Shown: piece after piece, positions 4,256-5,475 of the stretch
Numbering within the stretch: position 1 is the stretch's first letter
How the letters are laid out: each line of letters starts with the position of its first letter
IMG/VR virus record: IMGVR_UViG_2563366903_000001
Strand: one strand, 5' to 3'
DNA length: 7,412 nt
Source: a virus
Taxonomy: Duplodnaviria; Heunggongvirae; Uroviricota; Caudoviricetes
Translations under genes and position numbers: made by a program
The notes under the pieces: generated by a model
The model's input: the letters and a program-made list of their open reading frames with translations, nothing else
What the model was told of the DNA's origin: nothing
Databases searched by the model: none

Positions 4256-5475
4256 ATGAACGTGAACTGTCCATTATCCGTGCACTGGGCGAAGAATTCG
4301 CCGCGGTGATAACGGATTTACAGCGTACATTTGAGGGGAAAATAGCCGCGCAGGCACAAATGTTTGAAGAAAAACTGGCTTCCCTGTCTGTGGTATTACA
4401 GAAGTGCGTGACGGGCGATGATGTGCGTCCGATGCTTGAGCAGATGGTGAAGGAGGCTGTAAGCCATATTCCTGTTCCGCGTGATGGTCGTGACTACGAT
4501 CCGGATGTTCTGCAGAAGGCGGTGAATGATGCGGTCGCAAATATTCCGCAGCCAGCGGACGGTAAAAGTCTCACCCCGGATGATGTGCGTCCGATGCTTG
4601 AACAGATGGTGAAGGAGGCGGTAAGCCATATCCCTGTTCCGCGCGACGGTCGTGACTATGATCCCGATGTTCTGCAGAAGGCGGTGAATGATGCGGTCGC
4701 AAATATTCCGCAGCCGGCGGACGGTAAAAGTCTCACCCCGGATGATGTGCGTCCGATGCTTGAACAGATGGTGAAGGAGGCGGTAAGCCATATTCCTGTT
4801 CCGCGTGATGGTCGTGACTACGATCCGGAAGTATTGCAGAAGGCGGTGAATGATGCGGTTGCGAATATTCCGGTACCGGCGAACGGTAAAAGTATCACTC
4901 CCGATGATGTGCGTCCGATGCTTGAGCAGATGGTGAAGGAGGCGGTAAGCCATATTCCTGTTCCGCGCGACGGTCGTGACTACGATCCGGATGTTCTGCA
5001 GAAGGCGGTTCTGGATGCGGTGAGTGCCCTGCCGGCTCCGCAGGACGGGCGTGATGCCACGGCACTGGAAATACTCCCCGCCATTGACGATCAAAAATCC
5101 TTTCCCCGGGGCACGTATGCCACACACCAGGGCGGACTCTGGCGGGCGTATGAAAAAACGCACGGGATGCGGGGATGGGAATGCCTGGTTGACGGGGTGG
5201 CCGATATTGACGTCAGCATGACCGGCGAACGGTCGTTCACTGTGGTGGTCCGGCAGAGCAGTGGCCAGCGTACGGAAAAAACATTTTCCCTGCCGGTGAT
5301 GCTCTACCGCGGTGTGTTCAGAGCCGGTGAAACCTACCACCCCGGCGATACGGTGACGTGGGGGGGCTCGCTGTGGCACTGCAACAGTATGACCGAAGAT
5401 AAACCCGGAGAAGCTCATTCATCAGCCTGGACCCTGGCTGCAAAACGTGGGCGGGATGCAGGAGGCGGAAAATGA
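4252..5475 (+). CDS. Repeat-containing putative virion protein of unknown function (407 aa): N-terminal coiled-coil, 54-aa tandem repeats, C-terminal carbohydrate-binding-like domain
   Basis: ATG overlaps the portal stop (ATGA at 4252-4255) and the stop overlaps the adaptor start (ATGA at 5472-5475). Codon bias matches the operon. The protein has about 3.7 tandem copies of DDVRPMLEQMVKEAVSHIPVPRDGRDYDPDVLQKAVNDAVANIPQPADGKSLTP. The C-terminus has a Y..GD.VT..G..W......T...PG.....W.L pattern. Confidence 0.75.
   Translation: MNERELSIIRALGEEFAAVITDLQRTFEGKIAAQAQMFEEKLASLSVVLQKCVTGDDVRPMLEQMVKEAVSHIPVPRDGRDYDPDVLQKAVNDAVANIPQPADGKSLTPDDVRPMLEQMVKEAVSHIPVPRDGRDYDPDVLQKAVNDAVANIPQPADGKSLTPDDVRPMLEQMVKEAVSHIPVPRDGRDYDPEVLQKAVNDAVANIPVPANGKSITPDDVRPMLEQMVKEAVSHIPVPRDGRDYDPDVLQKAVLDAVSALPAPQDGRDATALEILPAIDDQKSFPRGTYATHQGGLWRAYEKTHGMRGWECLVDGVADIDVSMTGERSFTVVVRQSSGQRTEKTFSLPVMLYRGVFRAGETYHPGDTVTWGGSLWHCNSMTEDKPGEAHSSAWTLAAKRGRDAGGGK
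4417..5009. repeat. In-frame tandem direct repeat, 162-bp unit, ~3.7 copies (units start at 4417, 4579, 4741, 4903; degenerate continuation to ~5058)
   Basis: Direct comparison of units: copy 1 and copy 2 are identical at 154 of 162 nt. Each unit holds two ~27-aa sub-repeats (IPxPxDG....PD.V...). Confidence 0.9.

Follow-up and report, generated by a model that had tools for sequence, protein, structure and literature searches.

In-frame repeats of variable copy number are well known in the surface proteins of phages and bacteria, as are fibers which end in domains resembling carbohydrate-binding modules (CBMs). Here we describe a tandem array with a unit of 162 base pairs (bp) in a stretch of 7,412 nucleotides (nt) from IMG/VR record IMGVR_UViG_2563366903_000001, the whole of which is called the window. 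Based upon Pfam and PHROGs matches the window is the head module of a lambdoid Escherichia coli prophage, and the array lies within an open reading frame (ORF) of 407 amino acids (aa). The repeat is in itself an ordinary feature, that is, an in-frame, copy-variable repeat in the shaft position of a predicted phage fiber-like protein; the more useful result is the uncharacterized and misannotated protein family which stands behind it. We know of no previous description of a portal-coupled fiber family of this architecture in HK97-like siphoviruses, of its wide distribution, or of the G-tract which can fuse it to the portal protein.

Several described systems bear comparison with this locus. T4 fibritin (gp wac), the collar/whisker fiber of the phage neck, is likewise an elongated protein of short amphipathic helices broken by Gly/Pro loops, with an N-terminal attachment region, a distinct C-terminal domain, a modular length and a gene situated among the neck genes. 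It differs in ending in the foldon, whereas the protein described here ends in a CBM5/12-like beta domain; furthermore, the host phage is a lambdoid siphovirus, and a neck location is deduced here from the genes. No fibritin family was matched by the window protein in Pfam or PHROGs. Collagen-like fibers ending in a CBM5/12 or ChiC-type domain (uncultured Caudovirales, BFVD), and tail fibers or tailspikes bearing such modules, are built upon G-X-Y triplets, whereas helix-loop units are found here; the window gene, moreover, lies between the portal and head-tail adaptor genes and not in a tail-fiber module. The HK97-family portal protein (PF04860/TIGR01537) is encoded by a true portal gene which the window ORF adjoins, is coupled to and is sometimes fused with, but the 407-aa ORF is itself without a portal domain. 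Lastly, in-frame arrays of the variable-number tandem repeat (VNTR) type in bacterial and phage surface proteins, such as the BACON repeats of crAssphage, show the same perfect-length units, the same copy-number polymorphism between near-identical genomes and the same shuffling of variants among units. The present unit differs in being long (162 bp), so that changes in number probably occur through homologous recombination, not polymerase slippage.

The 162-bp array and its variation among loci

Tandem Repeats Finder (TRF) places the array at 4417–5009 with a period of 162, 3.7 copies, 92% matches, 0% indels and a score of 1025. The array is in frame with the ATG at 4252 [(4417–4252) mod 3 = 0], and its units were cut in register with the plus-strand ORF and compared pairwise at the nucleotide and protein levels (Table 1). 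Units 1 and 2 differ at 8 of 162 nt (gag/gaa, gct/gcg, att/atc, cgt/cgc, gat/gac, tac/tat, ccg/ccc and cca/ccg); all eight differences fall at codon position 3 and all are synonymous, leaving the 54-aa products identical. The same eight positions had been listed in an earlier reading of this stretch, the original prediction, and were recovered exactly. Unit 3 differs from unit 1 by 15 nt and by four residues (D30E, Q45V, D48N and L52I), each of which had been described as a conservative substitution, although Q45V hardly deserves that description. The first 36 residues of unit 4 repeat the protein sequence of the other units, after which its second half-unit diverges. The predicted span of the array agrees with the TRF coordinates, but the diverged repeat continues for some 55 nt past the TRF end at 5009. 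TRF also returned a weaker row of period 75 (4501–4744), which is explained by the construction of the 54-aa unit from two 27-aa half-units.

The comparison set comprised 80 related IMG/VR loci and three annotated references, 83 loci in all, in each of which the N- and C-terminal anchors of the repeat ORF were located by tblastn. By Nei-Gojobori counting, units 1 and 2 offer 37 synonymous and 125 non-synonymous sites, and the probability that eight of eight differences fall on synonymous sites is approximately (37/162)^8 = 7e-6 if the changes are independent. They are not independent new mutations, since all eight sites are polymorphisms common to the units of other loci; the differences between units 1 and 2 are thus silent variants of long standing which recombination or gene conversion has redistributed from unit to unit, and not fresh mutations. 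Despite this non-independence, the case for long-term purifying selection on the repeat protein stands. The ratio of non-synonymous to synonymous differences per site (pN/pS) is 0.098 among the full units of the window, 0.30 for all within-array unit pairs (82 loci) and 0.23 among the 92 distinct units from the same 82 loci, none of which contains a stop codon. In the core unit 32 of 48 polymorphic sites are at the third position. Frame-disrupting indels were also sought: the frame from the N-terminus into the C-terminal domain is kept in 82 of the 83 loci, and the view that the repeats are translated in the plus frame and constrained is well borne out. The sole frame-breaking locus, L064 (IMG/VR 2541047165_000011), has a 1-nt deletion in the array region (anchor span 809 versus 810 nt), which is to say that a decaying copy of the repeat ORF does exist.

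Copy-number change, which had been proposed as likely, was directly observed. The anchor-to-anchor spans are only 648, 810, 972, 1134 or 1296 nt, equivalent to 3, 4, 5, 6 or 7 units, and occur in 20, 51, 8, 1 and 2 loci, respectively; in addition phage Stx2c_JNE121036 has a two-unit array (900-nt span). Array size therefore ranges from 2 to 7 units and changes are always multiples of 162 nt. When units are labeled by their protein sequence, the arrays form series such as (3,1,6), (3,0,1,6) and (3,0,1,1,6), or (5,4,7), (5,4,4,7) and (5,4,4,4,4,67), and the pattern of the window (1,1,23,2) may be set beside (1,1,23,20,2) in another array. Certain loci show no mismatches in 600 + 600 nt of flanking sequence, yet contain three (L067), four (L014, L016 and L018), five (L030) or seven (L059) units; the fifth unit of L030 is an exact duplication of one unit. 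Because flanks totaling 1.2 kb are identical while the in-frame unit number differs, as in a VNTR, gain and loss of units must be faster than point substitution. It counts against this picture that repeats collapsed during draft assembly could account for some of the differences in copy number. Such collapse cannot be their only cause, since arrays of three, four and seven units occur in closed genomes: six closed E. coli genomes carry a colinear seven-unit array and other closed genomes have three or four units. We regard it as close to certain that the repeats are real, translated, constrained and copy-variable, and that the 340-aa ORF on the opposite strand, to which we return below, is an artefact.

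The portal junction and the naming of the family

In the window the portal gene contains a run of five G residues (G5) shortly before its end; the protein terminates ...MFRGILKK and its TGA overlaps the initiating ATG of the repeat ORF as ATGA. Elsewhere among E. coli prophages the run has six residues (G6), and portal and repeat ORF form one protein of approximately 860 aa. The split form was found in 51 and the fused form in 30 of 81 loci, and phages YYZ-2008 and 2851 have a single fused ORF of 861 and 859 aa, respectively. Apart from the G run, the split locus L028 matches the fused L016 and L018 at every position over 2,600 nt, and the difference in the run would be either a very recent switch or a sequencing error.

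The split state is very probably the native one, with two separate and intact genes. The repeat gene is separate, overlapping the portal stop by 8–14 nt, in a metagenomic contig, Pseudomonas putida and Variovorax, and by 4 nt in Stx1 phage BP-4795 and the plaque-forming Salmonella phage FSL SP-016. The portal protein of the latter ends ...KAMIRGFLTK, which is homologous to the window tail in its split frame, and there is no G run at this junction. The split junctions represent many haplotypes, whereas the fused ones fall into about four and are mostly from one clonal O157 prophage. Among the best 150 of the 5,690 family representatives most are stand-alone proteins of approximately 210–700 aa. 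The 860-aa G6 fusion accordingly appears to be derived, through insertion of one G (+1).

A second, apparent fusion, P0217 (1,237 aa), would be independent of those in E. coli and possesses about 25 half-units of the “LPxPEPLPDI” type together with the same C-terminal domain. It has a Met at the likely original start of the fiber gene, as do the E. coli fusions.

A conserved programmed frameshift at the G run was considered and rejected, since a short overlap of stop and start is all that the junction shows in the Salmonella, Pseudomonas, Variovorax and metagenomic relatives, which have neither a G run nor a slippery site there. Transcriptional slippage was also rejected, a tract of five G residues being too short for it. 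That the G5/G6 tract is a switch between a free fiber and one covalently tethered to the portal strikes us as improbable. Such a switch could be mutational (phase-variable) or translational, through a –1 slip in the P site on G-GGG, ahead of the rare ATA codon; the latter might yield a small fraction of portal-fiber fusion from G5 alleles. Were it real, the switch and the repeat number together would give virions differing both in the display of a glycan-binding fiber at the portal vertex and in fiber length, and both the appendage and this way of varying phenotype in relatives of the Stx phages would be new. The AGGGGG at the tract may also be a Shine-Dalgarno sequence for the ATG of the repeat ORF.

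The family to which the repeat protein belongs comprises 5,690 representatives (clusters at 50% identity, E of at most 1e-3); of 5,426 complete E. coli genomes, 1,246 have the gene. Carriers include the long-tailed Stx1, Stx2a and Stx2c converting phages and prophages of Klebsiella, Enterobacter, Salmonella and Pseudomonas. Its members are systematically entered under wrong names, namely “portal protein,” “frameshifted portal pseudogene” or “gp6-like connector.” Pfam and NCBIfam searches found no portal domain (PF04860/TIGR01537) in the 407-aa ORF, the domain lying wholly in the upstream ORF (residues 54–382). We therefore reject the portal identity of the repeat ORF, a name which it carries in databases only. 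It was from the fused alleles of E. coli that this name was carried over (phrog_2271, phrog_1289), and PHROG 1289 (“portal protein,” 331 aa) is the stand-alone repeat-protein family under the wrong label. Similarly, PF05135 [Phage_connect_1] was found neither in the window ORF nor in the homologs named “gp6-like” (P0274, P0272, P0335 and P0279); this domain is in the downstream adaptor. In DETEC-S792, the closest complete-genome relative, PGAP flags the equivalent coding sequence (CDS) as a “frameshifted” portal pseudogene, and the E. coli label “frameshifted portal protein” appears to be wrong. The annotation needs correcting in any case, since a split locus has two intact genes and not a pseudogene.

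NCBIfam has no family for the window protein or for six stand-alone relatives, and the portal-fused P0217 matches the portal model only. Homologs P0001–P0120 carry the precomputed Pfam family PF28083, which may name either the family or the junction region. No functional study of the protein or its repeat was found in the literature on portal C-terminal extensions, phage 2851, head fibers, FSL SP-016, the “162 bp” repeats of O157, or the collars and whiskers of siphoviruses.

Architecture and proposed role of the repeat protein

The full-length protein was modeled as a monomer with AlphaFold2 from an alignment of 47 sequences [overall predicted local distance difference test (pLDDT) score 64]. 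In this model the protein starts with one long helix (residues 3–52), and in the repeat region helices of 17 and 13 residues alternate, separated by 12-residue loops (pLDDT 45–60); a beta domain follows at the C-terminus and, like the long helix, is predicted with confidence. The two half-units of the 54-aa unit are DDVRPMLEQMVKEAVSHIPVPRDGRDY and DPDVLQKAVNDAVANIPQPADGKSLTP, which by our own count share about 36% identity in an alignment centered on the IPxPxDG motif. Each 27-aa half-unit consists of a short amphipathic helix and, after it, an [I/L]PxPxDGxD loop, and the 54-aa unit arose through an old duplication of such a half-unit. Hydrophobic residues are spaced i, i+3/4, i+7 along the repeat helix (V57, M60, L61, M64, V65, A68, V69 and I72, as read from the sequence). 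The model and the residue pattern thus agree upon short heptad-patterned helices separated by loops.

The C-terminal 151 residues gave a far better model when folded alone (pLDDT 87.5). A fold search with this model returned CBM5/12 folds, followed by phage tail fibers and tailspikes and by All3316, a baseplate protein from a contractile injection system; a Foldseek search of the PDB was in agreement. As modeled, the domain has the small three-stranded beta fold and exposed aromatic residues of CBM5/12 modules. Among the predicted viral structures of BFVD the best named matches are “collagen triple helix repeat,” CBM5/12 or ChiC_BD, and tail fiber proteins, with E values down to 1.6e-8. In Pfam the window protein scores 21.0 bits against CBM_5_12 [PF02839], below the cut-off of 26.2, which is exceeded by homologs P0274 (27.3) and P0272 (26.6). 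A sequence search of the PDB gave nothing significant, the best hits (E 0.04) being designed helical repeat proteins; there was also a weak match to All3316 (7b5h), a protein which the fold search then returned as well. Three residues of the C-terminal domain, H292, C311 and C377 (nt ~5125, 5182 and 5380), are invariant in 47 diverse homologs and might contribute to a disulfide or bind a metal.

Between the N-terminal helix and the C-terminal domain the family is highly variable. There is a single half-unit in members of 214 aa and about 25 in members of 862 and 1,237 aa. Furthermore, 69 of the 150 best family representatives (46%) have at least four consecutive G-X-Y triplets, with up to 41 collagen-like triplets, and the longest of these runs are in the stalk position between helix and C-terminal domain. 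On reading its translation, we found no run of at least four such triplets in the window protein. Collagen triple helices are obligate trimers; since many relatives have collagen-like runs, we infer that members of the family are trimeric fibers in which the middle is an interchangeable shaft.

We consider it somewhat probable that the 162-bp array encodes the modular stalk of a fiber-like virion protein, and we would give about the same weight to a trimeric fiber having this stalk and a glycan-binding tip. The product is that of a separate gene, translationally coupled to the portal gene by the ATGA overlap, and consists of the N-terminal helix of about 50 residues, the 54-aa units and the conserved 136-aa beta domain with its CBM5/12 fold. 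Few copies of it would be displayed on each siphovirus particle, at the portal vertex or neck, where the distal CBM-like domain might bind a surface glycan reversibly and so aid adsorption. Homologous recombination or replication slippage between near-identical 162-bp units would alter the stalk in steps of one unit, repeat number thereby setting its length. The term “stalk length” was used in the original prediction as an inference which that reading could not itself support; it is now reasonably backed by the modeled helix-loop modules between helix and CBM5/12-like domain, the range of 1 to about 25 half-units and the collagen-like runs. The original prediction had not picked up the portal name and portal fusions of this gene, the half-unit duplication inside the 54-aa unit, or the fact that differences between units are shared polymorphisms spread by recombination.

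The location at the portal vertex or neck is put forward more tentatively. The start of the gene overlaps the stop of the 12-copy portal protein in every taxon examined, which suggests a low-copy partner at the portal vertex or neck and not a lattice decoration, and the recurrent fusions with the portal protein (the E. coli G6 alleles and P0217) point the same way. Both the low copy number and the portal association are thus presumed from conserved translational coupling to a 12-copy protein. A fiber at the neck or portal vertex would be the most economical model, its architecture being analogous, not homologous, to that of the T4 whiskers. If there is such a fiber with a glycan-binding tip, it would be an overlooked determinant of adsorption or retention in medically relevant temperate phages, and the repeat number would be a simple polymorphism, functionally meaningful and typable by the polymerase chain reaction.

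Several points weigh against an external fiber with such a stalk. The repeat region was modeled with low confidence (pLDDT 45–60) and as a monomer only, and would suit either a coiled coil or a helical-hairpin solenoid. The literature searched contained no experiment or structure which places any family member in a virion. Intact portal fusions of 860 aa are encoded by 30 of 81 E. coli loci, including that of phage 2851, which with its fused allele is reportedly infectious. The portal C-terminus normally faces the capsid interior, a fact hard to reconcile with an external fiber, since a fiber fused there should be misplaced. In the fused alleles either the extension is tolerated or processed, or the protein is internal, or those prophages are impaired.

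A head fiber or decoration on the capsid lattice, comparable to phi29 gp8.5 or the collagen-like gp12 of SPP1, would leave the repeats to set fiber length and is in our opinion unlikely, though it is the best of the alternatives. The gene lies within the head module, the collagen-like variants suggest a probably trimeric fiber, and the helix-loop repeat recalls the helix-turn-helix supercoil which gp8.5 of phi29 is said to form. Nevertheless, every taxon examined has the start of this gene overlapping the end of one for a 12-copy protein, an arrangement better suited to a low-copy partner than to one needed in the hundreds; the gene never adjoins the capsid gene in the loci seen, and fusion has recurred with the portal and not the capsid protein.

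Slightly less likely again, the repeats might be a C-terminal extension of the portal inside the capsid, either as an internal stalk or barrel for DNA spooling, analogous to the portal barrel of P22, or as an internal or ejected protein on the portal crown, in which case the length of the internal structure would depend upon repeat number. The fused ORFs of 859–861 aa in phages 2851 and YYZ-2008 and in 30 of 81 loci would be expected of such a protein, as would the independent 1,237-aa fusion with about 25 repeats, the long N-terminal helix directly after the portal end, and the conserved adjacency and translational coupling to the portal gene. On the other hand a stand-alone gene is both ancestral and by far the more common arrangement, it is in the split frame that the portal tail is conserved, and the few fused haplotypes are largely clonal. 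The CBM5/12 fold, the collagen-like stalks and the resemblance to tail-fiber ends are hallmarks of external adhesins, not of internal proteins.

Much less credible is the notion that a frameshift has made the portal gene a pseudogene, with the ORF as its dead 3' half and the repeats decaying, as the PGAP flag on the DETEC-S792 CDS and the entry “portal protein (pseudogene)” in several phage records would have it. It is already contradicted by a pN/pS of 0.1–0.3 with no stops in the 92 distinct units, by the intact repeat ORF of 51 split loci, by the separate gene of distant taxa and plaque-forming phages, and by the conserved ATGA coupling. Least of all can the minus-strand ORF be a real gene whose product the repeat encodes: it is long, has an ATG and is open across the array in 78 of 82 loci, but it is in the exact codon-complement register of the sense ORF (bounded by sense codons TTA 4396 and TCA 5419), which stays open wherever the sense strand avoids TTA, CTA and TCA; it has no family matches, the homologs of the repeat ORF are all annotated and conserved on the plus strand, and each of the eight silent sense changes between units 1 and 2 alters a residue of its product, a substitution pattern which already contradicts such a gene and sustains the original prediction of an antisense artefact.

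Gene neighborhood

The features of the window are collected in Table 1. Downstream of the adaptor gene are those for a head closure protein, a gp10-like protein and a tail terminator (Pfam, PHROGs). A second ATGA overlap, at 5472–5475, joins the repeat ORF to the adaptor gene and has an AGGAGG upstream at ~5460–5465. With such overlaps at both of its ends the repeat ORF is the middle member of a chain of translationally coupled genes for portal, fiber and adaptor.

Table 1. Coordinates of predicted features in the window
Feature	Coordinates	Strand	Basis or remarks
Large terminase, C-terminus	64–678		Pfam/PHROGs
Protease-capsid fusion, 645 aa	742–2679		Peptidase_S78 residues 48–153; HK97-type capsid residues 386–635
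73-aa ORF	2724–2945		phrog_829, E 3.6e-38
Portal gene, 454 aa, native C-terminus ...KAMFRGILKK-stop	2891–4255	+	Pfam Phage_portal 5.5e-81; phrog_2271 positions 1–451
G5 tract	4236–4240	+	Junction comparison: 51 loci G5 split, 30 G6 fused
ATGA stop/start overlap of portal and repeat ORF, translational coupling	4252–4255	+	Sequence; kept in every E. coli haplotype
Repeat ORF, 407 aa, putative portal-adjacent fiber-like protein	4252–5475	+	phrog_1289; phrog_2271 positions 455–859
N-terminal segment, residues 1–55, one long helix, probable coiled coil/attachment region	4252–4416	+	AlphaFold2 helix 3–52, pLDDT 79–89
Antisense 340-aa ORF, artefact, not a gene	4396–5418	–	Codon-complement register; bounded by sense codons
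Repeat unit 1, two 27-aa helix-loop half-units (54 aa)	4417–4578	+	TRF, unit comparison, AlphaFold2
Repeat unit 2, protein identical to unit 1, 8 synonymous differences	4579–4740	+	Unit comparison; identical nt copy in 4 other loci
Repeat unit 3, 4 aa differences from unit 1	4741–4902	+	Unit comparison
Repeat unit 4, 36 leading residues identical, second half-unit diverged	4903–5064	+	TRF, unit comparison
C-terminal all-beta domain, residues 272–407 (136 aa); CBM5/12-like module ~350–400 (nt 5299–5451)	5065–5472	+	
Head-tail adaptor Ad1 (gp6-like)	5472–5798	+	Pfam Phage_connect_1, phrog_40; starts at second ATGA overlap

The protease-capsid ORF is a protease-scaffold-capsid fusion, there being a coiled-coil stretch between the protease and capsid domains; in Variovorax and metagenomic loci protease and capsid are separate genes. 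The gene order terminase, capsid, portal is unusual and is kept in the Pseudomonas and Variovorax relatives. The last 55 nt of the 73-aa ORF lie within the portal gene, which starts at 2891, and a small ORF is found at this position in all relatives examined.

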